Assembly (NCBI GenBank): GCA_050084515.1
Contig: CM114271.1
Span: 19,406,001 to 19,470,000 of the forward strand
From: Blasia pusilla
Taxonomy: Eukaryota
Length of the DNA: 64,000 nt
Direction of reading: 5' to 3'
Shown here: positions 11,303 through 36,317 of the stretch, piece by piece
Position numbering within the stretch: the stretch's first letter is position 1
Layout of the letters: each line of letters opens with the position of its first letter
The notes under the pieces: model-generated
Told to the model about the DNA's origin: nothing
The model's input: the letters and a program-made list of their open reading frames with translations, nothing else
The model's database searches: none
Position numbers and translations under genes: made by a program

Positions 11303-11700
11303 TGTTGTGCACATACACATCGCTAGCCATATCCACACTACACAACACCAATCTTCCTAAAATATTAGTGGATCCATACACATACAAGAAATGAATCCAT
11401 CCATGTACATCAAAATAACACAACAAAATTTGAGTAAAAATGGCTCAGACGGCCAATTCCACTGTCAAATCTACATCGGCATATGGAGCCACATCCACTC
11501 TCTACTATGAGGGAATTCGGACACTAGCACCCTAGTTCCTACTACACACAAAGCAACAGAGGTGCTCTAAAGGCCCATATGAGAAAGATGGTTTGGTAAG
11601 ACCATCTCTCCCTCTCTTATAGCCTTCGAAAGAGCCAAAAGGCTCTTCCCCCAAAAATATCCTTCAAACGGTAACCTGCATGCACATATTATTGAGTTTA
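11303..11700 (-). mobile_element. Truncated 3' terminal repeat (B2 plus part of A2) of another copy of the element-A family, inverted
   Basis: The reverse complement aligns, diverged, to 27350-27705. Shared blocks include ggggaagagccttttggctctt, ctagggtgctag, gatgtagatt and gaagat.ggtgttgtgt. It starts at the family terminus tgttgtgcacatacacatcgcta. Confidence 0.8.
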
Positions 11701-12348
11701 TGCATTGTTTAGCGTTGGGGTTACGGAAGGCTGACATTGAGCCTTGTCCCTTCTAGATACAGACCTCGATTGGGGGCATGTCACCCACGCAGTATATGAT
11801 TCGACAGGAGATAGTTGTTAGAGTCCAGCCAGAGCATGCGACGGATAGTGCTATGGTGCACACACGTGCGATTACGACATCAGTTGAGTCATACGATGTG
11901 TTGTTATATCCCCTAGGATTCATCCTTGACTTCTGGGAGGAGACCGTTGCTTATCGGCCAGGGAGGCGTTTAGGTGACGGCCGGATGAGTCAGCTATCTG
12001 TGCAGTTTGCAAGACGAGGAGGTCGATCACGAGACAAGTCTGTGACCACGTTGGCAACTTTCACACGTAGTGTTAGCTGGCCAGGAGAGTTGTTGGAGGG
12101 GAACGCACAAGCGGAGGATTTCCGAGTAGTGGATAGTCCCACGGAGAGACAGGCCATGGCAGGTGTCTCTTCCCATGTTGGCGAGACCCCTTCACCTTTG
12201 TGGGGTACGACTTGAGAGATACATAGGAGTGTCGACGATATCGTGAGGCACGCGTGGAGTCATGCCTTTATCTCGGAGCAGCGAGAGTCAAATGGTGATC
12301 GGGCCCCTGAAGTGGAGACGTTGAACCTAGGATACCACACCCGTTGTA

Positions 12349-13320
12349 TGGCAGTGTCCAGAGGAGGGTGTTAGGGTGTTAGGGCTCTTCAAAGGGATAA
12401 ACATATGATTAGCAACGGTATTGCAAGCGGGCATACGAATGCATCACTACCTTTATGTGGAGAGAGATGAGATCGCGCGGCGAGTATCATTACTTCATGT
12501 AGCGAGATTGGTCCATAGGTATCCTGAGTTGTTTCCGATATCTGCACTACGGGGATATCAGTATACACTACCCACCGACATCTCTTTGGTGGGGGCGCAT
12601 GATCTAGATAGAGTTGGCACCATTCATTTGGTGATTGTTGGATGGCCATGTCAGGGTCATTCATCAGCTGGCCGAGGGTTTGGATTGCAAGATCCGAGGT
12701 CATGGATGTTTTGGGAGATGTTGTAAGTAGTACGACACTTTTAGGAGAGTCAGACATGTTTTCTGGCGTACATCTTGAAGAACGTGCCGTTGTTGGGAGA
12801 CACTCGTGCACGTATGCTGACGAGTGTGCATCAAATGAGGTCTTGGTTGGGAATTGCTGTGTTGTTAGATGCAGCAAGAGTTGGATCACGCGCCCATCGT
12901 CCATGACTGTGGTGGACAAACCTGATACCATCAAAGGTACTGAGTCAAGCATACGATGGAGTCCACAGAGCACCACATCTCATAGTGGATGTTATTTTGG
13001 CCTCAGGGCGTCGATCTCAGGTGGTGACGCGGGATGATAGACTACCGTTGGCGATGGCCAATAGGATGGGGGAGTTGAGGGTAGCCTCACCTACGTTGGT
13101 GAGCTTCCCAACATCCCATACCTTTCGTCAAGGAGGGCCACGCATGATTTCGGAATGAGATAACCCAAGCATTGGAGGAGCCTAGAGCAGATGAGCGCGA
13201 GCGCTACGGGTACTACGGCGGTGCCAGGTATGACTGAGGCATCCCGGAGACAGGTTTTGGGGCAGGCAATGGACCTCAACTATCTCACATGGATAGTCAG
13301 CCTTGGTATGGCTGAGCAGA
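12349..13320 (+). pseudogene. C5 cytosine DNA methyltransferase domain (DNMT3/DRM-like) inside pol of element A, disrupted
   Basis: Motifs in order: RVLGLFKGI (I), YLYVE (II), TDIS (III), LVIVGWPCQG (IV, catalytic Cys at 12649), DPRSWMFWE (V), YILKNV (VI), AHRP*LWWTN (VIII), RRQVLGQAMD (X). Several in-frame stops. Confidence 0.9.
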
Positions 13321-13599
13321 GACGGATGCAAGAGCCATCCATGCTGTCACGCCCACGAGTTGGACCATTGCCTACAGGGTCTGTACAGGCATTGGTTGGG
13401 AACGGGACCAGGAGAGATAGGCACCCATGGACTTCCTGGGACGTCGTTTGAGCGGAGAGTGCAAAGGCGGCCAGAGTAGCACATGTTCATGTTTTGGATG
13501 TTTTGGTGTAGGAGGTCAGAGTGGAGTGGTTGTTGCGGAGGTGGCTAGGGTTGCTACATAGCAACCAAAGCCAGAGGTTAAGTCTTCTCCGAGGGAGGT

Positions 13600-15084
13600 C
13601 ATGATGGAGACTTGGGAGCCTGTAATAGGTCTCAAGTTGATAGGAGGAGAGCGACGGCGAGTTCATAGGTTTTTGAGAGGGCATGTCAGTTGTTTTGCCT
13701 TTAGTATGAGAGACTTGGGTACGCTGAAGGGTCTCGGGATACGAATTGAGTTGGCTAGTGATTCGCCAATCTTTCGTCGACCCTTACAGGTATTCTGATA
13801 TAGAGCGAGCCTTGATTCAGAGCAAGAGTCAAGACTTGTTGGAGGCAGGACTTGTGGAGTTATCACATGGGGAATATGCATCTGCCACAATCATGCCGAA
13901 AAAGAAGGATATGTATGGCAATTGGATGGATAGGCGGATGTGTGGAGATTACCATCCAATCAACCGACCAACGAGGTCAAATCGGTAGGCCATGCCGACT
14001 CATGAAGAGATCTTTGATGGGGTTGGGCATGCAAAGATCTTCAGTACTTTAGATCTCCGTGTTGGCTATCATCAACTTCCTATCAGGTTGGAGGACAAGG
14101 AGAAGACAACATTCTGGGGGATAGATCAATTTGGGAGAGATTGCTTGTATCAGTGGCGGTTCTTACCATTTGGGTTGAAGAACACGCCTGCGGAGTTTCA
14201 GAGAGTGATGGATAGGATTTTGGCTGGCTTGGATTTTGTATGATGTTACATACATGATATTCTTATCTTCAGTTCCATGGTTGAGGAGCATGAGCGACAC
14301 CTGGAAGAGGTGTTTCAGCGATTGCAGTTACATAGACTGAAGTTACATCAAGGCAAGAGCACATTCTTTCAAGAGCAGATTGAGTACTTGGGACACACCA
14401 TATACCTGAGTGGGTTAGGTGTTCAGTAGACAAAAGTCGATGCTATTGCGCAGATTCCACGCCCTACAGATGTGATTCGAGTCCGAGCGTTTCTTGGACT
14501 AGTGAACTTCTATCGACGGTATGTAAAGGGTTTTAGTGCGATCGCAAAGTCTTTGACCTTATTGAGGAGACTTGATCAGGTTTGGTTGTGGGGAGATGAT
14601 CAGGAGCGAGCATTTTAGGAGCTCAAGGATAGGTTGACGTCCTTACCCATTTTACAGAGACCATTACCCATTCCAATTACATACGGATTGGAGCATGTTG
14701 GGTCTAGGAGCAGTGCTTACTCAGAGGGATGACGAGGAGAGGAAGTTTGTTGTGGCTTACGCAAGCCGATTGAACAACATTGTAGAGGCAAAATACAACT
14801 CTTACAAGGGAGAGTGCTTGGCTATAGTGTGGGCCATGGCACATTTGATGTGTTATTTATTCGACAACCCTTTCACACTTATCATTGATCATCAACCGTT
14901 GAGGTGGTTGATGGAGTCCGACAAGCTTACAAGAAAGCTTGCCATGTGGGATCTATTACTACAGGAGTATGAGTTTGAGGTGGTTCATAGACAAGGTAGG
15001 CTGAGCCAGGCTGCGGATGGGTTTAGTCGTAACCCATGTCCGATTCAGAGAGACAACAGAGGAGCTCGATGGTACGGAGAGAGT
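13600..15084 (+). pseudogene. Ty3/Gypsy reverse transcriptase and RNase H of element A
   Basis: RRMCGDYHPIN, FSTLDLRVGYHQ, LPFGLKNTPAEFQRVMD, CYIHD (decayed YIDD). RNase H: TDWSMLGLGAVLTQ, VAYASR, ECLAIVWA, IDHQPLRWL. Confidence 0.95.
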
Positions 15085-15212
15085 TGTCGTGCGCATACAC
15101 ATCGCTACACAACATACATCGCTGTCACCGAACACACACACAAACACGCATGATCCCATGCTAACTCATGGCATCCAAACAACGAGACAAGAAGAACCAA
15201 AATATCTCCAAT
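15085..15212 (-). repeat. Element B repeat B2 (outer 3' end)
   Basis: Near-identical to 15728-15861, differing by (CA)n length and one substitution. Confidence 0.95.
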
Positions 15213-15725
15213 AAAGTAAGATCCAATCTCTCTCTCCACCATCTCACACCATAGCTCTCAAAGGTGTGCACTCTCTCTCATGTCAAACCAAACCCACTCT
15301 CCTAATGAGAGGCTTGGGTTACACTCACAAGGCAAGGTACCATAGCTCCGCCGCCTCATGCCAAGAGGTTCAACAAAGAGAGAATGAGCTCTCAAGCTCT
15401 CTATCCTTGAGGTATACCCCTCTCCTCTCCCAAGCTCTCTTCATGGTAACCTATTCTCCCAAGTCACCTCCTTGGCTCTTGACCTAATGTAGGAGGTCAA
15501 GGGCCACTTACCAAAAATAGTAAGTCGATCATATATTCAAAATGATACTTACCTAAAATAGTAAGTTACTCAATATGGTTCCAAATGAGCCGAAACGAAG
15601 GGGAAACCTGCTATCTCAGGTTTCCAAAGGCCTCAGCACGTCACCCTTGACCTACTGGGCATGTCCTCCACTACTCATGAAGGCGCTCTATTAGATCCCA
15701 CCGATCTATCCTAAAAGACGTGACA
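15212..15725 (-). repeat. Element B repeat A2
   Basis: Direct repeat of 24818-25339. A manual count gives about 14 substitutions, mostly transitions, plus a (CT)n length change. Confidence 0.95.
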
Positions 15726-15727
15726 GT

Positions 15728-15861
15728 TGTCGTGCGCATACACATCGCTACACAACATACATCGCTGTCACCGAACACACACACACACACAAACACGCAT
15801 GATCCCATGCTAACTCATGGCATCCAATCAACGAGACAAGAAGAACCAAAATATCTCCAAT
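15728..15861 (-). repeat. Element B repeat B1 (internal copy of the 3' terminus)
   Basis: Copy of 15085-15212, separated from A2 by 2 bp (+ strand gtgaca-GT-tgtcgtg at 15720-15734). Confidence 0.95.
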
Positions 15862-16039
15862 CGCCCCCCTAGCTGGTGGTTAGGTCCCTCTAACTCCAGA
15901 TAGCCATCTATCCCTACCTGCCATGACATACATCTCTCGGACGCTAAGAGCAAGAAGGCCGGGTGATCATGTGGCCCCATTGTTAGTCACCTCCTTGTCA
16001 TCCATGTCATAGACACAAGTCGGAATGTAGAACTACCTT

Positions 16040-17300
16040 TTATGTACATCTAGGACACATCCATCATCCCTGAAGAACCCTAGTGAGAGGTGGCGTCAAA
16101 CATGCCATATGCCATCCTCTCGAACACCCATCACAGACTAGTATCGTGGCCGCACCACAGGCAAAACCACACAACATACAACGCAAGCCTGCAGGAACTA
16201 CTACTAAGCTCGGATCTACTGTACCATCAATGTTAGGAAGGTGACATGGCGCACAATTACGCACATGGTCCTTCCATACCATACCATCGCGTCCCTCCAG
16301 CAAGAGAACACCCGATGGCAAAATGTCACGCACTCTCAGGATAGTGCGCCCTGCAGTCACATCCAACGTCGTCGGTGTTGTCTGCTGCAAATAGACATAA
16401 TCTCCCTGATGAAATCTCCGGATAGTTGGTCGATAACCACCACCTCGAATAGTCGTATACCTCAACGTATCCCGATGTTGTGCAATCGCCAAGTTCTCGA
16501 ACGCCATGGGCATCACTCTCGAAATAACTCACCCTCGAGAACATGCTCGCACCCATACATCCGGGTCATCAAGGTTCAGCACCTCACCAAAGATCTCGAC
16601 GAATGGCCGCAGGTAAATCGGCTCTCGCCATAAAGTAGCAAGTACGGTGAAAAAGACGCTAAGGATGCTCTCTGAATTGACCAGATCCCATCGCCAACCA
16701 TGGCAATCGGAGGTCCCAATCTCTAGGTGACCTCTTGCAAGCCATACTTGCGTAAACCCCTCTTCACCGTCTGCACGACTCTCTCCGCTAATCCATCCGC
16801 CTCAGGATGATCTCGCGAAGTTGTGCGGTGGTTGATCAGCGCCTGATCACACAAGGCCTGGAACTCACCGCGAAACTCGGTACCCTGGTCTGTCAACACC
16901 TCAGCTGGTGCGCCATAATGACTCAACACTCTGTCAAGGAAGGCATAAGCTACTCCCTCACTTGCTTTGTCAGGCAATGCAACCAACTCGATCCACTTCG
17001 AGAAGTGCTCGACCATCACCAACACATAACAACTGTGACACTCCGTCAAGGGCAAAGGTCCTGCAAAATCCAAACTCCATCTATACCCTAAGCCCATGAT
17101 CGGTAATGGATGCAACTTTGGAGTCGGAGCATTGAACGATGCTCGGACCCGATCACACACCATGCACCTGGCAACAAACTGCTGAACGTCAGTCTGCATG
17201 CCTCGCCACCAATACTGAATCTGGAGCAAGCTATACGTCCGCTTCACCCCAAAGTGACCCAACTCCTCGTGGGCATCGCACTAGTCGTGCTCTCTGCAAA
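16040..17300 (-). pseudogene. DDE integrase with C-terminal PHD finger, element B
   Basis: HHCC (HEELGHFG...CMVC), WSLDFAGP, VLTDQGTEF, HPEADGLAERVV. Then a C4HC3 pattern CMLC...VCDGCSRGWHMACLTPPL...WMCPRC, ending at the TAA at 16040. Confidence 0.93.
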
Positions 17301-17599
17301 GGATGCGGCACTACGCGCACTCGCCATCCTCCCAAACCCTCAAAACATGTGTCCCCTCCCAACGGAACCGTCGGCCCATTTGAGAGGATCCGATCCCGCT
17401 CTCTAGCATCCATGGTGCTCGCAAGGCTGCCAGTACAAAGGTACTCTAAGACTACTCCATCATCATGAATATCTCGGCCACTTGTCGTATCCTCACTGGC
17501 TTCGGGATCTAAAGACTCTCCACTAGACCTCGCCATCAAAGTCTCCACACTCTGGCTCTCCATAGCCAACATGCCTAAATAGGGTCGACGCGTGCCATC

Positions 17600-19087
17600 C
17601 TGGCACCGACTCCTCATCACTCTCTCCATGCCATCGAGCTCCAGTCGCATCTCGCTGACTCGGGCATGGGTTACGACTCAACCCATCTGCATCCTGGTTG
17701 AGCGTTCCAGGTCTATGTACCACCTGAAAATCATACTCCTGCAACAACAGAGCCCATCTCGCAAGCTTCCCTGTAAGCTTGTCGGACTCCATCAACCACT
17801 TCGGTGGTTGATGATCGATGATGATGGTAAAGGGGTTGCCGAATAAGTAACACCTGAAATGCACGATGACCACACCGCAGCCCAAGCACTCACCCTCATA
17901 CGAGCCGCATTTGCCTCTGCAGCGTTGTTCGAGCGGCAAGCGTAAGCCACCACAAACTCTCACCTCATAATCATGTTGGGTGAGCACCGCCCAAGCCCCA
18001 ACATGCTCCAATGCGGTGCAATTGGAAAGGACGCCCGATCGGTCTCCTCAAGATGGGTGCGGACGTCAACTCGCCCTGAGCAATCTGAAATGCTCGCTCC
18101 CGCTCATCCCCAGTGCCACTCGTGATCCACCTTGGTGAGCAAGGTCACCGCTTTTAATCGAATCGAATCCCTTGACGATCGCCGATAGAAGTTCGCCAAT
18201 CCCATGAATGCGCCGAACACGACTCACATCGAGGGCGTGGAATGCGTGAGATAGCCTCTACCTTTGTCTCCTTTGAACACCAAGGCCCCGGGTATATCGT
18301 ATGATCCAAGTACTCAATCTGGTCGTAGAAGAACTTGCACTTGCCTGGATGTAGCTTCAGCCCATGTAATTGCAATCGTCAAAACACCTCCTCTAGATGT
18401 TGCTCATGCTCCTCAACCGTGGCGCTAAAGACTACGATGTCATCAATATAACACCTAGCAAAATCCAGACCAGCCAAGATCCTATCCATGACCCTCTAAA
18501 ACTCAGCCGGGGCATTCTTTAACCCAAATGGTAAGAACCGCCACTGGTACAAACAATCCTTCCCATGAGGATCGATGCCCCAAAATGCCGTCTTCTTTTG
18601 TCCTCCAACTGATAGGCAAGCGATGGTATCCACTCATAAATCAATGAATCAAGACCTTTGCGTGACCAATCGCATCAAAGATCTCCTCAGGGGTGGGCAT
18701 GGCATACCTATCGGACTTCGTCTGCCGATTGATAGGTCGGTAATCCCCACACATCCGCCTATCCGTCCAGTTGCCATGCACATCCTTCTTGGCGGGCATG
18801 ACAGTGGCAGATGCATACTCCCCATGCGACATCTCCACTAGTCCTGCTCTGACCAAGTCTTGGCTCCTACTATGAATCAGAGCCCTCTCCATATCACTGT
18901 ACCTGTAGGGTCTTCGGAAGATCGGCATATCACTCGACAACTCAATGCGGATCCCCGGTCCCTTCAGCGTACCCAAATCCTCCATGCTAAACGCAAAGCA
19001 GCTCCTATAACTCCTGAGGAACTGATGTATTCGGCGCCGCTCTCCTCCTGTCAACTTAGGGCCCATATCTGGCTCCCAAGTCTCCAT
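17600..19087 (-). pseudogene. Reverse transcriptase and RNase H, element B (frameshifted)
   Basis: RRMCGDYRPIN, YAMPTPEEIFD, LPFGLKNAPAEF, RCYIDDIVVF (about 18430-18455), IDHQPPKWL, GKLARWALLLQEYDF. Confidence 0.93.
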
Positions 19088-19409
19088 CGTGACTACAGTA
19101 GGACTCTCCGGCGCGGGTATCGGTGGTTGCTATGGTGCAACCCCATCTCGGCCGCTCTCCTGCAGCCAACTGCAAACTCTGATCTCCTCCACGTGCAGTG
19201 CCCGAAACCACGCACGATGTTGTGGCTATCATCTCCTTGCGTACCTTCAAAACATTCCAAGAAGTCCAAGGGTGTCTCTCCCGATCTCCCCTGGTGCGTA
19301 GATCTCCTCGGGTCTCGCTTGACCCACGCCTCCACCGTCTCGGTAGGCATGGGGCTCACCAACGCAACCGCTGTGATCTGTCGCGATCTCATACAACGCT
19401 GCTCAGCCA

Positions 19410-20370
19410 CTCCCAAGCTGAGGATCCATGTCAAGCTGTTCAAGTCCATCGCCTGACCCAAGACATGGCGCCGTGATGCCTCTAACATTGATGGTATTGC
19501 CGTCACTCCTGTGGGAAATCCCATCGCTCGCTCTCTCTCGTCGGCGTTGGGCTCCACCAACCGCTGAACCTGGTCATCCCAAACCAAGCCAGGACCGGCC
19601 TCCTTGTATGCATAGGAAGCGGAAAACTCACAACGTGGGCAAGGCGCCGCGGCCTCGCTACCTGTTGACCACGATCGGCGGTGGTCGATCATCGTGCCTC
19701 ACCGCCTCGATCGCGACCTGGATCGAGAATGGAATCCACTAACAAAGGGAGGGCGCTCCACTCTGATACGCCCTCCATAACACCGCATGGGGCACCAAGT
19801 TGGTCCACCATAGACGCGGGCGATGGGCTCTAGAACCTACACTCGCCGCATCCAAGAACACTGCTGGGCCGATCAGCACGCACTTTTTGATGAGCACTCG
19901 TCACGACTCGTGACTCGAGTCTCTAAGATCGGCACATTCTCTAGAATGTAGGTGGAGAACGAGGCCGGGTGCTCCTGAATCGCCGTAAGACCCTCAACAT
20001 CTCCCAAAACAACCTGGGAGTGTCAGCCAACCCGCTGCCTCGTCCATCACTCGATTGGCCCTAACATGGCCAACCGCAATGACCAAATCAATGGTCCCTA
20101 CCGCTCTAAGTCTTGCGCCCAACAACAAAATATCCTCGGTGAGGGAACTCTGGTACTCAGATCGCGGACCTTGCACAATAAGTCGGGAAAACGAGGGCGT
20201 AATTGCGCCCATGTCGTCGAGTGAGACGCGCCTTGCAACATCATCACTCTCCACATACAAATGGCCAGACTCGCACTCCTGCCTGCAAAAAAAGCCTAAC
20301 CCGGTGCTAATCCTCCAAAGAGATCTAACACTCGAATACCCTCCTCCGGGGTACACCACACAATGGGTGT
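19410..20370 (-). pseudogene. C5 cytosine DNA methyltransferase domain, element B (frameshifted)
   Basis: GIRVLDLFGG-ISTGL, LYVESD, IDLVIA-GWPC*G, LFWEML, TYILENVP (intact ENV), GSRAHRPRLWWTN (intact RxR), ERERAMGFP, RRHVLGQAMD. Confidence 0.9.
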
Positions 20371-20719
20371 AGTATCCAAGGGTGTCATCATAGCACTCCC
20401 CGCTACCTTGGGTTCCTCAGACCCGTCACGCTTTGGTGCAAACGCCTCGCTCCACGCGATGCCTGCGACGCAAGATCGCCAATCGTTGAAGCTCCTCAAT
20501 CGAGCCCCACAGCGACACCTCTCCTCCACGGAATGATGCAGCTACCATAACACTCCTCTCCTTTTAAATGTCAGGAACATGAGTATCCTCTGCATGGACA
20601 TGTCCCTCAATCAAATCACTAGGCCAAGTGATGGCACTGCTAAATCCGCTAAGGTCGCCATCTCTCTGGCCGCGTTTTCGATCATCGCACTGTGAATCGA
20701 GCGGGTAATGAGCTAAGGC

Positions 20720-21100
20720 GCCCATCACCGATCGCCATCTGGTGCAGCAGGGGCCGACTCCTCCCAAGTAATCAGGAAAACCCCATCGGGTATAACACGC
20801 TCCACCAACCAAGACGTCGTAGGACTCAAGATCGTCACTATCGCCTTGGCGCGCACCACGGACTCATATGTGGGATGTCCCGGGCAAATCCTCACCACGA
20901 CCTCTTGTCGGATGATATACTGTGTGGTACTCGCTCCATCCAAGGATGTCTGTATCCGAAATGGACAACACTCCACATCGGCTCCCGTCAAGCCCAATCC
21001 TCTGAATGACGCTTTCCCCAACATCAAGGGTTGCGCTCCTGAATCCAACAAGACGCGCTACGGACTAAAAGCTCTACCTCCAGGACTCACCAACTGGAAG
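20720..21100 (-). pseudogene. Retroviral-type aspartic protease, element B
   Basis: LLDSGAQPLMLG contains the D-S-G active site. The position is between gag and DNMT. Confidence 0.85.
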
Positions 21101-21989
21101 ACCTCTCCTCGGTTATCCAGCAACACAACACCAGGAGAAGCCATGGCACGCTCTATCGCGGGTCTAGCGGGCATCTCCGCCATCCTAGCGACCCGCACCG
21201 CCATGAATCGACGTGGGCGGCCCGAGCATCCGCCAGGCGGGTCCATCACTTCCTCTGCAATCACCTCTGAACGTGATGCAGGAACTCCAACTCTGCGCTC
21301 ACATAGTGAAGCGGCCAGCCGAAAAGCCTCGGCAGGCGTACCTCCCAACGTCACAACATCGGAAGCAGAAAATAAAGGAGTGCGGTACACAACGGTGGCC
21401 GCCCCCAACAACGTGCTCGACACATGCCCCTCCTGAGCATTGACAATAGGAGTCGTCGCACTAGCTTCTCCCATCGCCCTCCATGCTTGCACACCAACAA
21501 CATTACCAACTCTCCAGGAACTTTGATGAGGGCCCATCGATGGGGTCCTCATCGCTTCGGACAACGTGAAAGATTGAGGAAGCCTAGTCTGTCTACTGGC
21601 TTCCCCTCGCTGTGGATCCAACTCTGTGGCTGCTCCACGCATCACAACTACGGCGGCCTCCATCTGGGCAACCCCGCACATCCATCCAAGATCCTCCAGA
21701 TTTCTGGCTGCTCCATATGATGTCGATGCCACGGATCCGGCATCGGGTAACCTCAATGTCATAGCGGCAATCTGCTCCAGTAGTGTTGTATCGAGCGACC
21801 ATCCCGCCCTCACGTCCGGCATCTCCTCGGCGCGTCTAGGTGGTGGTACTCTACCTCCTCCACGGCAGCTCCACCACCCTGCCGGGCAACTCCGGCTCCT
21901 CGCCCCCAACGGGACCACGAGCACGATCTCTAGGCCCACCCGGACCGGCTTTCGCTCTAGTGCCCCTCTCCGGCCCTCGGTCCAGGACG

Positions 21990-23030
21990 TAACTCAGGAT
22001 GTAAACTAAAACACCTGGCGCGTGTATGACCATACCCCGACAATAGTCACACGATAACCTCCTGGTGCAAAGCACCATCTCCTCCTCTATCTTTGAGGCA
22101 CACGTCCATGACCGACGAGTGCAATCGGCGATGATGGGCTCCACCACATGACCAACAAGTAATAGTAGGCGGCTGCTGTTGAGACGATATGAAAGCGCAG
22201 TCTCGTGGCACGGCCTCTCGGTATCCTCCTCGAGCTCGTGGTGCCCTGATGTCGACCTATCTCGAGTCACGTTGCCGCAGGTGGTGCAAACAATCGTAAT
22301 CGCTTGCTCTCGCCAGAACCCATGGTGGCTACGCCTCCTCCGCCATGTTGCGCTCAATGTTCTCGGCGGTCCTAAAACATCTCTCAATGTAGGGGAGGTG
22401 TTCAAAAGAAGCACCCCCTCCCGCACCCGTGTCCGCAGGTCCGGTCCAACATCGCATACCATGTTGGATAGCTGAGCCTCTGTCACCCCCCCGAGTGGCG
22501 TTGATCAACCGGCGCAAGCGAGTGTAAGCCTCACGCAAACTCTCACCCGAGCGCCCTCGGAAGTCGTGGATGCTCCGCAACTTCTCCGTCCGTACCCCTC
22601 GTAGCTCGCCCTCAACTCAGCAAGAAAGAACTCAACCACGAGGGTTGAACTGGGATGAACCCGACTAGACGGTGCAATGCTCCCGTCGGCGAGTGATCCC
22701 TCCTAAAACGTCACTAGTGGAAGAGGCGTAGCCTCTCCCGACTCCTCCTCCTCATCCGGGAACGGCTCCGCCCATGACACATAATATGGGTCATAGTAGA
22801 GCCTCCACGCCTCGATCTCACATGCATATCTCTCGAGAGAACTCATGGTAATCGCCCATGGGCCCCCTCTAAATCTTTGGAACATACCGTTCCATGTCAA
22901 ACGGGTTGAACTCTCTAGAGTTCTTGGCCCCTACCGGGAGTCGCACCAACTCCTAAACTCGCTATAAAATCGTGCAACTCAATCGTGCCCCGCACTGAAA
23001 ACCTACGCGGTCCTCTACCCGGTCGTCCAT
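21990..23030 (-). pseudogene. Gag with zinc knuckle(s), element B (frameshifted)
   Basis: LRSIHDF...GESLREAYTRLRRLI resembles a gag major homology region. CDYCRGYGHTRARC (CX2CX4HX4C) is restored by adding one G at about 22040. Homologous to 42448-43520. Confidence 0.75.
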
Positions 23031-24817
23031 CTCGTACGCCCAAGTGGTAGGACCACTCACAATGTGTGGCGATGTGCTCACAAACTCCTCTACACCCTCC
23101 CCCTTGTCTGACGATGACACAGAAGGAGGTCGAGATGGTCCCTCACGTGGAGACCCTCAAAACCTCGCGCCACTCCGCGTAAAACCTCTAGAGCTACTCT
23201 CGGGTTCACCACCTCGCCTCTCAAAGTCCCAAACAGACTCCGTGATGACCCTCGTGCCCCTCTCACCCAATCACTCTGAACCTCGTGAGGAATCCCTCAA
23301 TCACTCATCCCAAACATGCGGCACTCGATCTACACTCTCTCCCGAGGCGTGTAACGCGGCAACACGCGGCGTGGTGCGGCAAATCGACCAGGCTATCATC
23401 TCATCGACAACCTACCCTCAACTCCGGACATCCCACACAGGTCTATGTCCCCTAAACCACATACATAAATGATGCTCTCAGCATCCACACACCCAATATC
23501 CCCAAATAAATCCCAGAATCCCTCACACGTGCTGGGTAAAGGACCAGAATGGGTAACCTGAACACATGTCGATGTCGCTCCTCAGCAACTGCAAATATTG
23601 ACCCCAACTCGATCGTGGAGACAACTCCTCCAATCAGCAAGTCATACTCCTCCCGTACTGATGCTGCTCAAAACTCCTCGACTCCAGCGGAACAGTGTGG
23701 CGTTGCAGGCGGCACGAAACGGCTACGAACGGCACGGCCCTCGTTGGAGGGATGCGGCACTCGGCGGCATACCCTCCTCAATCAATAATAATCCCACACT
23801 CTGCTCCACAATGACGGTGCGACTCCGCGATCGAGATAGTGCGTTGCGGCCACGAGCGGCACGGCGCGGCAATCGGCGGCGCGGGTTACGGCGTCACGCA
23901 GACGATACTCGATCGTCGTCGAGCGGCTACCAATCACAACATAGCAGCATGAAATCAAAACTCAAACACCATAACCAGAGGTCATCTGCCTTCACTGGTT
24001 GATGAAGAAACTGCGATGACGGTGGTGGCCAAAACAAAGTACGTGGTGGCGACGCAAGTCAAGGAATCAACGAACATCATGGAAGACCCTCCACTCCGTA
24101 ATGGCGGCAATGGTACCCAAAGGGTGGACAATGGACGGTGGACCCTTGACAGTGATGGTTGACCACTGATGGTGACGGCCGACCGATGACGGTGACAGTT
24201 GACCGTCGACCGTTGACGGTGATTATGATGGCGACGGCCGCCGCCGGTGTGGCGGCTGATTTAGGGTTTGCACGATTTAACCCTAAAAATCGCCTAGCAA
24301 TGGCAGCCTTACAAGATTGCCCATAACTTTTTGCTCGCAACTCCAAATTGTGCACTATTTGTTGCACAGCGTGCACGGCTTCACGATCTACGCTACCATC
24401 AAAAAATATTTAGAATCAAAAATTTCAGTAAAAACTGACGGGGACTTTTATAAAGCCCAATGTCTCTTTCTCCTACACAAAATTTGGCAGCGCTCCCGCG
24501 CTGATTTCTCCCAACGAAAATGTAACATCTGTAAAAATACAAGTCAACAAGCTACATGGTGCTCCCGAGAGCACCAGCATGGGGCAACCCGCCCCCATAC
24601 TCAATCCCTATCAGAAATTGGGCAGCGCTTCCGCGCGCCACTCTTCCACACGAAAAATCGGCAAATGCAAAGAGTAATGAAAGCTGCCCTTGCTCTGGTG
24701 AGCACTCCCATGAGCCGCTGAACGGGGAACACGGTCCCCAACCTGCAAAAACAGCGAGTGACCAGCGAGCTCCCCCATGAAGCTCTCTCACTGTCTCATT
24801 CTCTCATTCTCTCTTTG

Positions 24818-25339
24818 TAAAGTAAGATCCAATCTCTCTCTCCATCATCTCACACCATAGCTCTCAAAGGTGTGCACTCTCTCTCATGTCAAACCAAACC
24901 CACTCTCCTAATGAGAGGCTTGGGTTACACTCACAAGGCAAGGTACCATAGCTCCGCCGCCTCATGCCAAGAGGTTCAACAAAGAGAGAATGAGCTCTCA
25001 AGCTCTCTCTCTCTCTCTCTTTGAGGTATACCCCTCTCCTCTCTCAAGCTCTCTCCATGGTAACCTATTCTCCCAAGTCACCTCCTTGGCTCTTGACCTG
25101 ATGTAGGAGGTCAAGGGCCACTTACCAAAAATAGTAAGTCGATCATATACTCAAAATGGTACTTACCTAAAATAGTAAGTTCTTCAATATGGCTCCAAAT
25201 GAGCCGAAACGAAGGAGAAACCTGCTATCTCAGGTTTCCAAGGGCCTCAGCACGTCACCCTCGACCTATTGGGCATGTCCTCCACTACTCATGAAGGCGC
25301 TCTATTAGATCCCACCGATCTATCCTAAAAGACGTGACA
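24818..25339 (-). repeat. Element B repeat A1 (5' end)
   Basis: Direct repeat of 15212-15725. It is not followed by a B repeat; the next element-sense sequence is caaagagagaatgag. Confidence 0.95.
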
Positions 25340-25343
25340 GAGT

Positions 25344-26932
25344 GACGAGGAGATGGTGCCCGGTTGGCATGCATGTGCCTATCTTTGTTGGTTGACTATG
25401 GTAGGTCAGCCACGCGTGATTATTCTAGTGGTGGGGATGGATGATGAGTCTTTGGATCCAGAGGTCAATCACGAGGTGACAGGTGGTTGTGATATCCATG
25501 ATGATATGGAGGTTGTGGAGTTCCTGCGCACTGGCGTCATAGCGAGCACAGTGAGTGCTAGGGAGCGAGATCGGATCCTACAGAGAGCCAGGAGGTTCAA
25601 GTGGGAGGAGGCTCATATTTTTCGGATATGGGGAGATGGTAGGATACGAGTGGTACCTCATCCTTCCCAGCGAGCACGTGTAGTGCGACATGCCCATGAG
25701 GAGTTGGGGCATTTTGGAGTAAAGCGTACTTACAGCTTCCTCTAGGTTCAGTATTGGTGGCGTTGCATGCATACTCACGTACAACAATTTGTGGCCAGAT
25801 GTATGGTATGTGACAGAGTGCGAGCATCCTTCAATGCTCCCACTCCGCAGATACATCCTTTTCCGATTATGGGTTTAGGTAATTTATGGAGTTTAGACTT
25901 TGCGGGACCTTTGCCATTGACGGGGCGTCATCATAGATACGTGTTGGTCATGGTGGAGCATTTCTCCAAGTGGATAGAGTTGGTGGCACTACCAGACAAG
26001 GCAAGCGAGGGAACAGCTTATACATTTCTAGATCGTGTGCTTAGTCACTTTGGTGCACCGGAGGAGGTGTTGACTGACCAGGATACCGAGTTTAGGGAAG
26101 AGTTTCAGACCTTATGTGATCAGGCGTTGATAGATCACCGCATCACGTCCAGAGATCATCCTAAGGCGGATGGGTTGCCGAAGAGAGTAGTACAGATGGT
26201 GAAGAGAGGATTGCGCAAGTATGGCTTGCAGCGGGGACAATTGAGGGAGTGGGACCTACAGTTGCCATGATTGGCTATGGGTTATGGCTTTAGTCGACAG
26301 GCATCCTTGGCGTCATTTTCACCGTACTTTTTGCTCTTTGAGAAAGAGTCAGATTTACCTATAGCTATTCGATGTGACATGGCAAAGGTGCTATATCTTG
26401 ATGATCCAGATGTGTGGGTACAAGCGTGTTCACATAGGGCAGAGATTTTTCATAGAGTTATGCCTATGGCCTTTGAGAACTTAGCTTTTGCTCAACATAG
26501 AGATACATTGAGGTACGCGACCATTTGTGGAGGAGGTTATCTTCCAGGGATTAGGAGGTTTCATCCGGAGATTACATGTATTTATAGCAAGCGGCACCCA
26601 CGACGTTAGAGGTCACTGTAGGGCATACGATCCTACATGTGCGCGAGGTATTATCGACCTGAGTCCTTATGTTGGAAGGACGGAATGATATGGTTTGGAA
26701 GGATCATGTGCATAATTGTGGGCCATGTCATCTTCCGAACGTAGACGGGACAGTGGATCCGAGCTTGGCAGTGGTACCTGTAGGCTTGAAGTATATGTTG
26801 TGCAGATCTGCAAAGGGTGCAGCCACGATGTTGGTATGTGATGGTTGTTCTTGAGGGTGGCATATGTCATGTCTGACCCCCCCTCTTGATGTAGTTCCCA
26901 CGGGACGACGGATATGTCCGAGATGTGTATAG
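25344..26932 (+). pseudogene. DDE integrase with C-terminal PHD finger, element A
   Basis: HAHEELGHFG...CMVC, WSLDFAGP, VLTDQDTEF, then YMLC...VCDGCS*GWHMSCLTPPLDVVPTGRRICPRC and the stop at 26930-26932. Confidence 0.93.
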
Positions 26933-27010
26933 GGTAGTAGGTCATGTCAGAGAGATGTGATATTTTCTATCTGGAGTTAGGGGGATCCAAGTGCCAGCTA
27001 GGGGGTTGGT

Positions 27011-27705
27011 TGTGTGGATCCACCCGTGTGTGGGGAAGATCGGTGTTGTGTGGTGTAGATATGACCAACAATGTATGTTGTGTAGCGATATGTATGCACA
27101 CGACAGTTGTCACATCTGAGTAGCCGATAGGCCGAGATCTATCGTGGATAGGGCGTAGGAGCCAGCAGAGTGTCTTGAGTGTAACTTTGTCCCACGGTAT
27201 TGAATGAGGTTGAGGATAGGTCCGTTGTGTCAGGAACGTTGTTTTTTACAACTTCCTTGTTGAGGTCTTTCACAACCGGGTGACTTGTTGACCAGGTCAC
27301 CCGCCCTTGGTAACATGTGCGCGTAGGTTACCAGGAGAATAGCTATTTATAGGGGAAGAGCCTTTTGGCTCTTCCCAACCCTATATAAGAGAGGAAGATG
27401 GCTTTCCTAAGCCATCTTTCTCATGTTGGGCCGTTGGAGTACCTCTCTTGTATGTGTGTGAGATAGGACTAGGGTGCTAGCATTCGGATTCCTTGATAGC
27501 TCAAGGTGGTCGAGGCTCGATATGCCAATGTAGATTGAGGAGTGGAGTTTTAGGCCGGGTGTGCCGTTTTTACTATTTGTTATTTTAGTTGTGTGATCTC
27601 CATGTATATGTATGAGTTGATTTATGTACATGTGTGGATCCATCCGTGTGTGGGGTAGATGTAACCAGCGATGTATGTTAGGTAGCGATACGTTTGCGCA
27701 TAACA
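27011..27705 (+). repeat. Element A 3' end: B1 (27011-27105), GT spacer, A2 (27108-27630), B2 (27631-27705)
   Basis: 'tgtgtggatcca.ccgtgtgtgggg.agat...atgtatgtt..gtagcgata.gt.tgc.ca..aca' occurs twice. The junction cacgaca-GT-tgtcac lies at 27099-27113. Confidence 0.85.
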
Positions 27706-30043: not shown

Positions 30044-30400
30044 GATCCTAAGCTCAAGCGCCGCTAAGCCACCTCGTCATCTTAAGCTAAACCCCGGCGC
30101 AAAGCTGATCCTAATCCCAACCCTAAACCCATGATATGCCGCGGGCTGAAGCACATCGCAATGGCATTCCCCAAGCTCATCATTACCGTAAGCTCGTCGC
30201 GAAGCGACTCGTTAATAATAATGATCCTAAGCTCAAGCGCCCCCAAGCCACTCGTCATCTTATCCTCGACCCCGGCGCGAAGCTGATCCTAATCCCAACC
30301 CTAAACCCATGATATGCCGAGGGCTGAAGCACATCGCAATGGCATTCCTCAAGCTCATCGTTACCGTAAGCTCGTCGCGAAGCGACTCGTTAATAATAAT
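30044..30400. repeat. Tandem duplication, 2 x ~179 bp
   Basis: 'gatcctaagctcaagcgcc...gcgaagcgactcgttaataataat' at 30044-30222 and 30223-30400. Confidence 0.95.
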
Positions 30401-31670: not shown

Positions 31671-34079
31671 AAAACAGAAGAAACATCTCTATACACATCC
31701 CACATCATATCCATCCGTCACTTGAGAAGTCTGCACAATAACTTGCAACATCTTGTAAGATAACATTTTTCTATTGGTTCAAAACCCTCCTACCAAAAAT
31801 CTTGAACCCAAAATCATACCAAATGGAGTAACACAAGACCTCTTTTCAAAGGATACCCTCGATCGCCACAAGTGAAATAATGGTGATGTAACTTTATAAA
31901 CTCTTGCATACGGCCTAAAAATCATGTACATACTAGAGCACATCACATTCAAGCTTCCCAACACATTAACTTAGATACAAAAATCAAAGTTTCTTGTTGG
32001 CATTAGACATATAAACCCGTGTAGGTCAAATGGATTTAGACCAACCTTACCAAGTTTGTGCAATTTTTTTGATGTGGTGAATGATGTTTGACAAAAGAAA
32101 TGACAAATAAAAGATAACCTTTCAAAAAAAAATCTAAATGTTGAGCAAAATTATCTCAACAAAAACCTCATTTGATTTATTATCTTGTGCCTTTAGGGTT
32201 AAAGTGGCATTAAAGTTTCCGATTCTTTATTAGTCATCAAGTAGTTGCATTACAACATATAATTTAGTGTAAAATCTTGTATGATTTTTAATTCAATAGA
32301 ATTGTGCATATGGGGAAATTGAAAAGTTAATTGATGCTCTCCATTAGAGTGATAAGGGAATAATGTGACAAAAGTCTAATACTAAGAGAATGGAAGTAAT
32401 ACGAATAAGGAAAGAAAAAAATGGTCGACGAATTTTCTTTACATCATATCCTAAGACAAACCATGGAATACATGCAAGTTTTCTTATGTTGCTTACACAT
32501 GAGTTCGAGAAAACTTGATTATAAGTTGTATATTTGTGCAAATGAGAATTTCATCTAGTTATCAACTTCACAGGTCATGACTTCTTTGATATAATTTAGT
32601 TATTTGGGAATTAAGGTAAGGTATTATATCAGGTAGATGTTTCCCTATATAAATCGAGAGAGAGAGAGAGAGTTTTGTACAAATGAAGCACAAAGCATGG
32701 ACCTAAAAGCTTATGTAGCCTACAACTCTATCCATTCAAGAGGTTTGGATTGATGTCTAGAAGCATTCATTGAGAAACATAAGAATATTATTTTATCATC
32801 TAAAACTAGACTCTCTAACTAAGTTTAGACATTTGGAGCAATTCACTGTTCTATCAAGGATCTATATTTGGAATATATATAAGTGATCTTAGACTTCTTG
32901 CGATGGAATTTTGGAGCATTGATTTAGGCTTGTAATATACTTGCATTTCCATGTTTTAGGAGTCATTGGGATTTTAGGAATTTTAGATTGAATTCCATCT
33001 TTTTAGTAAAATTTAACATAAGTCCAATATTTGAACCAACCAAAAAAACCTCCTTGCAAATTTACCTTACACATGTGGACATCTTCATGGTTTTATAGAA
33101 AATTATAGCAAAGAAATTTATCCACTTGAAAACTTCAATCGAGTAATTTAGATCTCATTCCAAAATAATAAAATTATACCCTAGAGAACTTGAATATTGT
33201 ATTTACCATCAATTGTCTCATTCGATGTTTGGGCCTCCAACATTTAAAAGGAAATTCATTGAAATGAATATAAGTTCTATCTCTTTTAACTCCACAAAGA
33301 GCTTTGCACACCCAAATAGTATTACTAACAAGATTGTAGAATAATCATATGAGCCATGATTACAACCTCCAAAGGAAAATATTTATTCCTATTCATTAAG
33401 AATCCAAATTTATGTTATTTTTTCCTCCAAGTCATCTTATACTTCTTGCTCCAAGATACCAATAAGAAAAATCTTCCTTTTTCCATCTTCCATATCCATG
33501 ATTTCATTTTTGAAAAAACAATCCTTTCAAATGAATTCCACAAACATTTGGCAAAACATCCTTTTCCACACTTAAAATATGAATGGTACGGTATATTTTT
33601 TTGAGTGAGAATAACTAGTGCGCCTTGATAATAAGGCTAGATATGTGTGGAGTAAGGTATCGAGAGGCTGTGGGTGACATGTTGACCTTTCTTCATAAAT
33701 TTCGTGCACAAATCATCCTTTAGGAGGTTGCTTGGAACCTTCTTGGAGATTTCTTGATAAGTTAGTGATACAATTTTATGAGTTGGGGCTAAATTGTGCA
33801 TTCCCAACTTTGCACTATGGCCTAATGATATAGAGATTGACTTATAAAGCATCATACCATATCTTAAAAGCATATGAGAAGCATACGACTATTAACGTGG
33901 AAATAAGCACATGCTCTCATTAACCCTGATAACTCAATGCCAAAAAAGTATGTTAGTTCTTATAAATCCTTCGTATTAAATTTTGCAAGTAATTTTAGCT
34001 TGCCTTTTTATGGCATATCCTTGATTCCTCATTACCTCTAGTAATTAAGATGTTACAAAAAAAACAATTATCAATATAT

Positions 34080-35900: not shown

Positions 35901-36317
35901 AGAAACATGCAGTATGAACATTATGCTAGATCTAGTTCCTTTGAGTATCATAGTCTAGTGATCCATCATTTCAATGAAATAACCATTAGGGGTAAAAAAT
36001 TATGTGATATCCCATTGTATTATGTGAATAATAGAATATGAGGGTTATTCACTCAATCTTTTGATTAACAAGGATATTTTTTTAACGATCATCCGTGAAG
36101 TAAGAAGAAGGCATAAATGGGAGGGACATAGAGAGAATTTCAAAAAACATATATTTGGTTTCATCTTGTTGCATTGGAACTTTAGGCATAAGCATAATAC
36201 AATGTTGTGTATCATATAATATAATCACTATTGCAATAACTTTTACATGCTCCAGATTCAAGGTTGCACGGAAACGGACAAATCCGGACATGACCACGGA
36301 CATGGAAGACCAGACAC

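Follow-up and report, generated by a model that had tools for sequence, protein, structure and literature searches.

Elements of the DIRS order typically insert without a target-site duplication, and those of the PAT/Ngaro/VIPER type encode a tyrosine recombinase and lack a DDE integrase. In Tf1/sushi elements and Tcn1 chromoviruses, both LTRs are complete and ordinary, and a chromodomain is present. Self-priming has been predicted for the Tcn1 clade of mosses and club-mosses (Neumann et al. 2019), in the main text of which the terms Marchantia, PHD and methyltransferase are absent. Split direct repeats in the order A1...B1-A2-B2 are described for PAT, Ngaro and VIPER (also for TOC1 and SymbioDIRS-Dnmt3), and the internal B1-A2 is given as the end-to-end junction of the element termini in the relevant sections of PMC4157794 and PMC5890265; TOC1 of Chlamydomonas is a non-autonomous DIRS element (PMC9940879). 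In two-LTR circles of foamy virus and HIV-1, an internal CA..TG palindrome, made by ligation of LTR tips on a side path, is reportedly cut by integrase to give integration-competent ends (PMC1180852, PMC1905944). For KnitGypsy-Dnmt3 of the charophyte alga Klebsormidium nitens, the legend to Fig. 4c of de Mendoza et al. 2018 (PMC5890265) states a DIRS repeat structure with Gypsy domains. Gypsy elements with DIRS-type repeats are thus an already known kind, with a precedent printed in 2018, and have barely been studied.

The window analysed here is a stretch of 64,000 nucleotides from the liverwort Blasia pusilla. Element B lies in it on the minus strand and reads, in element sense, A1, internal region, B1, 2 nt, A2, B2. 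Its repeats, signals and flanks were placed as follows (coordinates of the window).

15085-25339, minus strand: element B, whole insertion A1-internal-B1-ac-A2-B2 (10,255 bp; coding region degraded)
25340-25343, unstranded: target-site duplication GAGT, copy at the 5' end of element B (junction reading)
24818-25339, minus strand: A1, first letters TGTCACG
25025-25034, minus strand: TATA-like GGGGTATACC within A1
24980-24994, minus strand: A1 segment complementary to the PBS, predicted RNA 5' end
24803-24817, minus strand: predicted self-priming PBS CAAAGAGAGAATGAG, directly 3' of A1, complementary to 24980-24994 and 15374-15388
15862-15875, minus strand: polypurine-type G-run CAGCTAGGGGGGCG, immediately before B1
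15728-15861, minus strand: B1, last letters CGACA
15726-15727, minus strand: 2-nt spacer 'ac' between CA (end of B) and TG (start of A), centre of the inverted-repeat junction GACA-NN-TGTC
15213-15725, minus strand: A2 (repeat comparison with A1)
15085-15212, minus strand: B2, with CA at the insertion boundary (repeat comparison with B1)
15081-15084, unstranded: target-site duplication GAGT, copy at the 3' end of element B (junction reading)

A1 (25339-24818) and A2 (15725-15212) were 95.6% identical across 522 nt, and B1 (15861-15728) and B2 (15212-15085) 94.8% identical across 134 nt. The junctions read ...cactc/TGTCACG at the 5' flank, ...CGACA/ac/TGTCACG between B1 and A2, ...CTTACTTT/ATTGGAG between A2 and B2, and ...CGACA/actc at the 3' end, so that the outer ends are TG..CA and the flanking duplication is the 4-bp GAGT. 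Element B is nested in another copy of the family (element A, plus strand), the reading frame of which closes once B is removed: across the insertion it runs ...ARWYGES/SDEEMVPGWHA, in agreement with element B's own ...ARWHGESDEESVPGWHA. Repeat alignment, junction reading and frame closure together bear out the layout, ends and duplication that an earlier sequence-only reading had given for this element. That reading had also ascribed the same kind of 3' end, with a different A sequence, to element A, and a 5' end of A alone with the same A/leader boundary to element C; both hold at the coordinates below.

11715-15084, plus strand: element A, upstream part (from protease/DNMT through RNase H), into which element B inserted, 5' truncated
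25344-27705, plus strand: element A, downstream part (integrase and PHD, then 3' repeats)
26995-27705, plus strand: 3' end of element A, with G-run 26995-27005, B1 27011-27105, gt, A2 27108-27630 and B2 27631-27705
39947-46364, plus strand: element C, 5' part (A, PBS, leader, gag, DNMT), 3' part missing
40463-40477, plus strand: predicted PBS of element C, complementary to 40284-40298

The A of element A is unlike that of element B, and its two B copies align in two blocks with 81-93% identity. The A of element C (39947-40462) is 85% identical to the A of element B, and the A/leader boundary is the same. The window copies are all dead, and activity of the family is judged from relatives only.

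Coding regions of element B were located by Pfam and tblastn, with the near-intact relative L023 as reference.

20725-22504, minus strand: gag and aspartic-protease region, degraded frame fragments (DSG motif at 20725-21057; protease match in the relative L023 only)
19396-19882, minus strand: C5 DNA-methyltransferase remnant (tblastn with residues 1095-1260 of L023 ORF1; PF00145 in L023)
17523-19129, minus strand: reverse transcriptase and RNase H, with frame breaks (RT_RNaseH, E=2e-13)
16723-17280, minus strand: integrase, H2C2 zinc domain and rve DDE core (E=1e-15 and 8e-15)
16064-16528, minus strand: integrase C-terminal region with PHD finger (PF00628, E=2e-6)

The gag/protease region of element B and the methyltransferase fragments of the window gave no Pfam match themselves. 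In L023, matches were obtained to DNA_methylase (PF00145, E=1.8e-13, between protease and RT), RVT_1, RT_RNaseH, Integrase_H2C2, rve and PHD; the upstream aspartyl-protease match (E=2e-4, 22.4 bits) was under the Pfam curated cut-off of 24.3. The succession RVT_1, RT_RNaseH, Integrase_H2C2, rve is the Ty3/gypsy order, and the best PDB match was the Ty3 Gag-Pol polyprotein (7q5b, E=4e-98). H2C2 and rve DDE integrase domains are kept in every copy of the family, the copies having been recovered with integrase as the query, and no tyrosine recombinase (PF00589) was found in nine L023 frames of at least 110 aa or in ten window frames, in line with what had been read from the sequence before. On these predicted proteins the family is assigned to liverwort Ty3/gypsy, with protease, C5 DNA methyltransferase, RT, RNase H, DDE integrase and PHD finger. 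Its Pol order, its TG..CA ends with 4-bp duplications and its PBS and polypurine tract are Ty3/gypsy traits; two complete LTRs were not found. Against the premise of two complete LTRs in all Ty3/Gypsy elements, an exception is already in print, KnitGypsy-Dnmt3 (Fig. 4c legend, PMC5890265). Compared by description only, that element shares the Gypsy-type Pol with cytosine DNA methyltransferase and the DIRS-type repeats; its host is an alga. In the liverwort family a PHD finger follows the integrase. Fused polyproteins with PF00145, RT, rve and PHD were present among the 51 matches listed, none of which was named as a Klebsormidium sequence.

The survey covered 80 related metagenome loci and the window elements, with the integrase as the query that recovered family loci. 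A B-NN-A-B 3' end was present at 24 loci, 20 of them independent after removal of four flank duplicates, and window elements B and A bring the independent insertion sites to 22; the layout is therefore a feature of the lineage, as previously proposed, and not a one-off. It occurs in at least four sequence subfamilies on separately assembled metagenome contigs, with a spacer of exactly 2 nt in 24/24 loci. At 18 further sites (metagenome loci and window) the form was A..B only, and the mirror form, A-B-NN-A at the 5' end, was seen at none of the 17 5' ends examined. No copy in the survey carried a complete B-NN-A or A-B unit at each end; the sequence-only reading had named complete repeats at both ends of most full-length copies as contrary to its layout. 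Both ends were present in ten copies: the 4-bp duplication was perfect in five (L013, window B, L003, L029, L078), matched at 3/4 bases in L039, L030 and L011, and was absent or ambiguous in L064 and L032. The inserted form is A-internal-B-NN-A-B, starting with TG, ending with CA and flanked by 4-bp target duplications. LTR finders would probably mis-call it, as already suggested, by pairing A1 with A2 and leaving B2 and the duplication outside.

Identity between A1 and A2 was similar to that between B1 and B2 of the same element (window B 95.6/94.8%, L013 92.3/93.8%, L039 89.7/92.2%). No alignment column separated B1 from B2 copies (116 columns in subfamily s1, 205 columns in s3), which points to one common source for both in each cycle. 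The A/B joint was exact in most copies and its length variants were partly inherited (L077, L080); it thus bears no clear mark of end joining.

The reverse-transcription priming signals of the family look canonical. A run of at least five G ending 0-3 nt before B1 was found in 23 of 24 loci and in both window elements, L024 having four G only. In three subfamilies of differing sequence, the 14 nt that follow A1 are complementary to a mid-A segment (covariation), about 26-37 nt upstream of which is a TATA-like motif. Pairing of at least 13/14 was found in 10 of 16 5' ends (0 or 1 of 200 shuffles as good); in the other six the predicted pairing was weak (9-11/14), and these are decayed copies yet still count as misses. 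In three stranded RNA runs, 10-20 times more reads fell on the element-sense strand, an assignment that presumes the usual library type. Reads ran across the boundary between internal region and B, with 46-98 loose ends at 15861 in each run, and spanned B-NN-A (joints 25337-25339 to 15082-15084). The A1 stretch around the predicted transcript start is a (GA)n run.

As the G-run adjoins B1, not A2, and the PBS adjoins A1, both signals bound B-NN-A rather than the inserted ends, and reverse transcription should yield an LTR of B-NN-A. On these conserved signals, transcription would start mid-A, 3' of the TATA-like box; the predicted RNA 5' end would fold onto the site directly after A1 and prime the minus strand in a Tf1-like manner, and the G-run directly before B1 would prime the plus strand. 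The product would be a conventional linear DNA with LTR B-NN-A, in which U3 would run from B through NN to mid-A and R-U5 would take up the second half of A. A minus-strand primer that is the element's own transcript 5' end, folded onto an LTR-adjoining site, is likewise predicted for Tf1/sushi and Tcn1 chromoviruses; of that system, complementarity, covariation and an upstream TATA-like motif were observed here, the transcript 5' end being predicted, whereas permuted repeats, PHD finger and methyltransferase set the liverwort family apart.

The reading that we favour, with a probability of about 60%, is that canonical priming makes B-NN-A LTR DNA and that integrase uses a site inside U3, giving a permuted insertion. 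With the integrase ends (the CA-NN-TG palindrome) inside the LTR, the insertion must be permuted and an end-to-end A/B joint is needed. In its most speculative part, integrase would act on the inverted repeat ...GACA-NN-TGTC... within U3 and not on the DNA tips; the integrated form would correspond to the linear DNA after its A end has been joined to its B start and the upstream-LTR site has been opened; B2 would be the remainder of the upstream LTR, and A2 would give the 3' R that the following cycle requires. A-internal-B copies might then derive from B1/B2 recombination or from cleavage at the two sites together, and would be dead ends. The upstream site might be the only one opened if the upstream LTR is the earlier of the two to become double-stranded and to be captured by integrase. 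Retroviral-type integrases normally require CA close to a DNA end, which counts against the proposed use of an internal site. Cutting of a palindromic LTR-LTR junction by integrase has a precedent in PMC1905944 and PMC1180852; in the viruses, however, the palindrome arises by tip ligation, whereas in the liverwort family it would lie in U3 and the ligated tips would be an inert A/B joint. Of the earlier proposal that both reverse transcription and integration are non-canonical, the first half is not borne out by the priming signals, and the departure lies in the position of the integrase ends and in the A/B joint.

Host ligation of B-NN-A LTR DNA into one- and two-LTR circles, followed by opening of any palindrome that integrase meets and by later loss of the mirror form through recombination between close A copies, is an unlikely account, although it draws on the same published cleavage of palindromic circle junctions (PMC1180852, PMC1905944, as there described) and explains both observed forms, since two-LTR circles would give A..B-NN-A-B and one-LTR circles A..B. 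Random opening of two-LTR circles should produce equal numbers of the two forms, and 0/17 mirror 5' ends stand against 22 sites of the observed form, so that the simple circle version needs an added asymmetry, which is pure conjecture. Moreover, observed-form copies with repeats diverged by 5-10% still hold both B copies, so that the mirror form would have to be lost entirely and far more quickly.

The true LTR might instead be A-B, with A as U3, R-U5 in B, A2-B2 as the right LTR and the coding region between U3 and R of the left one; minus-strand priming would then take place on the start of A2, immediately past B1, and plus-strand priming immediately ahead of A2. A-B does begin with TG and finish with CA like an ordinary LTR, and the 2-nt spacer after B1 resembles the usual U5-PBS gap, but across subfamilies only TGTCA is conserved at the start of A, which resembles no tRNA 3' end, and the end of B is not purine-rich. 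The G-run at B1 and the covarying self-complementary site at A1 would also be left as coincidences, and we consider this quite improbable.

Still further from the evidence is replication as in DIRS, PAT or Ngaro, with a circle completed on the internal B1-A2 junction and insertion by a tyrosine recombinase, perhaps in trans. The A1..B1-A2-B2 order is indeed that described for PAT, Ngaro and VIPER (PMC4157794) and SymbioDIRS-Dnmt3 (PMC5890265) in the sections on these elements, but the frames scanned hold no such recombinase, every copy retains the DDE integrase, the RT-RNase H-integrase region is nearest Ty3, and TG..CA ends with 4-bp duplications are a mark of DDE integration and depart from DIRS-order insertion, which makes this reading very improbable. 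An ordinary Ty3/gypsy element with LTR A, in which B2 is a secondary duplication, rearrangement or assembly artefact, is what LTR-finding logic would choose from the longest repeat pair (A1/A2), but it is hardly credible, being refuted by the target duplications that flank B2, by a host frame that closes only with B2 counted in the insertion, by the same layout at 22 independent sites in at least four subfamilies on separately assembled contigs, and by an A that does not end in CA.

It may be, somewhat against the odds, that this family is the first retroelement lineage in which integration normally goes through a palindromic integrase site located within U3, the tips of the cDNA being joined in every productive insertion. 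If so, the joined-tip intermediate would be either a circle or a break that integrase keeps together until the host seals it. The old circle-junction model of integration, which has long been discarded for retroviruses, would then apply as a natural main pathway, and split direct repeats would be suggested to arise wherever the integration site moves off the cDNA tips, in tyrosine-recombinase and DDE-integrase elements alike.

The three degraded copies of the DNMT-bearing Ty3/gypsy family in the window are designated elements A (+), B (−) and C (+), with A1/A2 and B1/B2 for copies of the repeat units A and B, and NN for the 2-nt spacer between B and A. Both repeat pairs proposed for element B were recovered in place by comparison of the window with itself, A1 (25339-24818) and A2 (15725-15212) at 95.6% identity over 522 nt, and B1 (15861-15728) and B2 (15212-15085) at 94.8% over 134 nt; the split direct repeats A1...B1-NN-A2-B2 are thus real. 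The junctions of element B were read from the sequence as follows (minus strand, element sense).

Host/A1 junction: ...cactc/TGTCACG...
Start of B1: ...GGGGGGCG/ATTGGAG...
B1/A2 junction: ...CGACA/ac/TGTCACG...
A2/B2 junction: ...CTTACTTT/ATTGGAG...
B2/host junction: ...CGACA/actc...
15081-15084 and 25340-25343: 4-bp duplication GAGT around element B

Element B is inserted in the RNase H-integrase linker of element A, a plus-strand copy, whose frame runs as ...ARWYGES up to the insertion and resumes with SDEEMVPGWHA; at the equivalent linker position element B itself has ...ARWHGESDEESVPGWHA. Since the frame of element A is found on both sides, the outer limits of element B are set independently of the repeats, and B2 is within the limits of the inserted DNA. 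Contigs from DNA run X1 were ~90-107 nt among the rows listed, too short for the long-range B1-A2-B2 order. The corresponding ends of the other two elements are given below; the A unit of element A differs in sequence from that of element B, and the A/leader boundary of element C is the same as in element B.

Element A, 3' end (plus): G-run, B1 27011-27105, gt, A2 27108-27630, B2 27631-27705
Element C, 5' end (plus): A alone, 39947-40462

Metagenome contigs were scanned with an integrase alignment, giving 80 loci (L-numbers) 57-82% identical to the window integrase. The A and B units of seven representatives were mapped on all 80 loci and the junctions were then read, so that copy counts refer to metagenome contigs plus the window. 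The G-run is a polypurine-type tract right before B1.

Terminal arrangements.
G-run, B, 2 nt, A, B, unrelated flank: 24 loci, 20 independent sites (22 with window elements B and A)
G-run, B, unrelated flank, without A2-B2: 21 loci, 18 independent sites
Mirror form, A-B-NN-A at the 5' end: 0 of 17 5' ends

Same-site duplicates were recognized by their flanks, four loci among the 24 (L026=L006, L066=L057, L025 and L041=L019) and three among the 21 (L017=L015, L037=L020, L052=L050). Four loci fell outside these classes (L063 and L010, with contig ends inside A2; L065, disrupted after A2; L056, ending inside B), L042 had lost B1 and part of A2, and six loci had no recognizable G-run or repeats despite enough 3' sequence. 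All 17 known 5' ends (15 loci, 2 in the window) carried a single A with no B next to it. With B-NN-A-B at 22 independent sites, including window elements B and A, the arrangement is no one-off rearrangement, as the sequence-only reading had held. Both ends were known for L013, L039 and window element B in the A..B-NN-A-B form, and for L003, L029, L030, L032, L064, L078 and the internally deleted L011 in the A..B form. Target duplications of 4 bp were perfect in five of these ten copies (L013, window B, L003, L029 and L078), matched at 3/4 bases in L039, L030 and L011, and were absent or unclear in L064 and L032.

Four features of the junctions are shared by at least four subfamilies (s1, s2, s3 and the window type), among which the A and B units are mutually unalignable. 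In 23/24 loci and both window elements, B1 is preceded at 0-3 nt by a G-run of five or more, usually AGGGGGG, the run of L024 having four G only. B ends in ...ACGACA and A starts with TGTCA, with a spacer of exactly 2 nt in 24/24 loci (GC 12, AC 7, AT 4, GT 1). With the GC spacer the junction, GACAGCTGTC, is a perfect palindrome; the AC, AT and GT spacers differ from GC by transitions and may reflect decay at methylated CHG sites. Reads compared with the window copy in run X22 showed 348 C>T and 284 G>A differences versus 37-90 for each transversion type. The bases right after A1 are complementary to a mid-A segment and constitute a predicted self-priming primer-binding site (PBS).

24803-24817, element B (window type), minus: PBS CAAAGAGAGAATGAG, pairs with 24980-24994
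40463-40477, element C, plus: PBS, pairs with 40284-40298
Subfamily s1: PBS ACTCAAAGAACTATGTT, 17-nt exact match in L012 and L013
Subfamily s3: PBS ATTCTAGAAAAACT

The pairing was tested in 16 5' ends using a 14-nt ungapped window and 200 leader shuffles. Pairing of at least 13/14, at the same relative place in A, was obtained for 10/16 ends and equalled by 0 or 1 of 200 shuffles; for the other six it was 9-11/14, indistinguishable from shuffles. As the PBS sequences vary among subfamilies while the pairing is retained, the two segments covary. A TATA-like motif (GGGGTATA.. or GTATAAAA) is found ~26-37 nt upstream of the PBS-paired segment, and by eye no TGG-initiated match of the tRNA type adjoined the boundary after A1 or after B1. 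The A/B joint reads ...CATTTTC/AGTTGTGG in s1 and ...CTTACTTT/ATTGGAG in the window type. One long variant of the joint is inherited in both A copies (L077, L080). Extra bases at the joint in s3 (ATTC..., like the first PBS bases) were considered as an end-joining mark and rejected, AATTC slippage being equally possible.

The cDNA tips of an LTR element are set by its two primers: the left tip is the base that follows the polypurine tract, and the right tip is the one that precedes the PBS. Read in this manner, the transcript would start in mid-A, U3 would consist of B, NN and the first half of A, and R-U5 would be the second half of A, giving a predicted cDNA of [B-NN-A]-internal-[B-NN-A]. 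In Tf1 minus-strand synthesis is primed by the 5' end of the transcript itself, and the mid-A/PBS pairing of the liverwort family is the arrangement described for that element. Self-priming is also predicted for the moss and club-moss Tcn1 clade in the passages covered of Neumann et al. 2019. No alignment column separated B1 from B2 copies (116 columns in 10 s1 loci, 205 columns in 13 s3 loci), and B1/B2 and A1/A2 identities are similar within an element; both observations fit a B2 that is remade each cycle from the template of B1 and not separately inherited.

Textbook LTR retrotransposons are inserted by the tips of their reverse-transcribed DNA. The DNA found here within the 4-bp duplication is A-internal-B-NN-A-B and not [B-NN-A]-internal-[B-NN-A]; versus the expected cDNA, the left B-NN is missing and an extra B follows the right A. 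At the A/B joint the right cDNA tip adjoins the left one, usually with base precision, and such an end-to-end joint is part of every A-internal-B-NN-A-B insertion. From this joint and the inserted form, it follows that the integration ends are the CA and TG of the internal inverted repeat. The proposal of a non-canonical reverse-transcription and integration route was half right: integration is non-canonical, with internal insertion ends, and the priming signals look canonical.

By reasoning rather than computation, no strand-transfer scheme with these two primers gives the extra B directly. Two routes might produce it. In one, the cDNA would be ligated to a two-LTR circle, one palindrome of which is then cleaved by integrase; in the other, the upstream-LTR palindrome of linear DNA would be cut, both resulting ends integrated, and the outer tips joined by the host. 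Integrase cleavage of palindromic LTR-LTR junctions is described for foamy virus and HIV-1 in the passages covered of PMC1180852 and PMC1905944. A two-LTR circle opened at a random palindrome is possible, but would yield the mirror form as often as the observed form, and none of 17 5' ends had the mirror form versus 22 sites with the observed one, so that some asymmetry is needed. Conjecturally, the upstream LTR would be made double-stranded early, shortly after the second strand transfer and well ahead of the downstream LTR, and would be the first to be captured. For the A..B copies two origins are possible: they may form directly, by cutting at both sites or by opening of a one-LTR circle, or they may be deletion derivatives left by B1/B2 recombination; since either route keeps the duplication, the two origins are inseparable by the data. 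Having no 3' R, A..B copies should not replicate further.

RNA reads were taken from three stranded runs with the same species label. In all three, reads favoured one strand by 10-20 to 1, which is the element sense if the usual library type is assumed, and extended out of the internal region into B as well as over B-NN-A. A transcript with B-NN-A(5' half) as U3 in its 3' part would give such reads; they do not discriminate between the competing models. Read starts accumulated at 25031 and 25038, beside a (GA)n stretch skipped in mapping, and were rejected as a transcript end. Joints of 25337-25339 to 15082-15084 were likewise rejected as circle junctions: they were interpreted as ordinary B-NN-A sequence of other copies, for which B2 and A1 of this copy are the better fit, and so are no evidence of circles.

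Reads at 90-99% identity covered the whole element sense-wise (14800-25600), with depth increasing toward the 3' end and differences mostly C>T and G>A. Most of the expressed relatives carry an s1-type B unit and not element B's own B (loose ends at 15861). In each run, 4-10 reads joined internal position 15925 to mid-A2 position 15418 with ends that are not splice-like, leaving out B1 with its preceding G-run and 307 nt from the start of A2; the joint probably represents a deleted family member.

The window copy contains many stops, and Pfam matches are still found to RT_RNaseH, Integrase_H2C2, rve and PHD; proteins matching its integrase fragment are 80-90% identical, with Marchantia polymorpha or Calypogeia fissa as named sources, which makes the host a liverwort. 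In L023, a near-intact relative, a single stop separates two frames (1369 and 1047 aa), and the Pfam domain order is aspartyl protease (a match below Pfam's cut-off), DNA_methylase PF00145 (E=1.8e-13), RVT_1, RT_RNaseH, Integrase_H2C2, rve and PHD. No tyrosine recombinase was matched in L023 (nine frames of at least 110 aa); its absence and the presence of a DDE integrase, suspected from the window, thus hold in these frames and by domain matches. Among solved structures, L023 is closest to the Ty3 Gag-Pol polyprotein (7q5b, E=4e-98). Relatives of the DNMT region include polyproteins in which the same domains are fused, together with numerous 'hypothetical proteins' of Marchantia, many of which are themselves polyproteins of the DNMT-bearing kind. 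The C5 DNMT domain PF00145 lies between protease and RT at L023:3700-4300 (ORF1 residues 940-1086), with remnants only in the window copies (19396-19882, minus). A PHD finger is found at the integrase C-terminus (window 16064-16528, minus; L023 ORF2 residues 990-1034), where chromoviruses have a chromodomain, and suggests targeting via histone-mark reading. L023:1-9317 reads G-run, B, gt, A and then directly GC-rich leader-like repeats resembling its own first bases, with no A unit at the contig start; the contig may represent a circular form, a tandem, or an assembly in which identical A copies, or a young copy, were collapsed.

Further repeats, and stretches of lower G+C, were noted in the window.

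11317-11691, minus: 3' half of an A unit then a B unit, on the opposite strand, adjoining the truncated 5' end of element A, 73% identical to its A2; perhaps rearranged, or else part of a second truncated copy
54866-54915, minus: 40-50 nt match (80-82%) to the conserved B end, distant from other element parts; may be the tip of another copy
40665-41104, plus: 220-bp tandem duplication in the leader of element C, 96% identical
30073-30400 and 2312-2566: short tandem/direct repeats with 150-nt and ~75-102-nt units, unrelated to these elements
32000-36000 and 48000-54000: G+C 30-39% versus 45-56% in retroelement parts

The same split-direct-repeat order is described for PAT, Ngaro and VIPER (passages of PMC4157794) and SymbioDIRS-Dnmt3 (passages of PMC5890265); these elements have a tyrosine recombinase, whereas the liverwort family has none in the frames scanned and bears DDE marks. 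For KnitGypsy-Dnmt3 of Klebsormidium, a DIRS repeat structure with Gypsy domains is given in the Fig. 4c legend of de Mendoza et al. 2018 (PMC5890265), so that this combination has been in print since 2018. That paper mentions 'integrase' twice, in each case for Symbiodinium, and its passages covered contain no termini, duplications, priming sites or mechanism for KnitGypsy-Dnmt3; the figure and supplements may add more. As the liverwort family has every feature described there for KnitGypsy-Dnmt3, it is placed, by description alone, in the same barely characterized kind. Judged by title and abstract start, no DDE-integrase split-repeat element was among the matches listed for split-direct-repeat retrotransposons, nor was a description of the family found in the portions covered of the literature on TOC1, REM1 and, for Marchantia, Ty3/gypsy elements, chromoviruses, PHD and DNMT3. 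As far as the literature searched extends, supplements and figures aside, the following appear to be new: B-NN-A as the LTR at the level of reverse transcription with a palindromic integrase site inside U3; the 4-bp duplications, the occurrence of two forms in genomes and the lack of a mirror form; and a split-repeat DDE architecture in land plants. The one-line Klebsormidium precedent suggests that the split-repeat Gypsy architecture may be old in streptophytes.

The split-repeat layout is real and general. Its interest is tempered by the 2018 precedent and by intermediates that are so far only predicted. What the family offers is a disagreement between priming signals and integrase ends on the limits of the LTR, shown at dozens of insertions, which opens the events that lead from cDNA synthesis to integration to direct tests; Marchantia, where relatives of the element are transcribed, is a tractable host. 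Software that pairs A1 with A2 will give wrong ends, missed duplications and wrong dates for these elements, and will miss A..B copies, which have no terminal repeat at all. Studies of bryophyte methylation should reckon with the cytosine methyltransferase in these copies.
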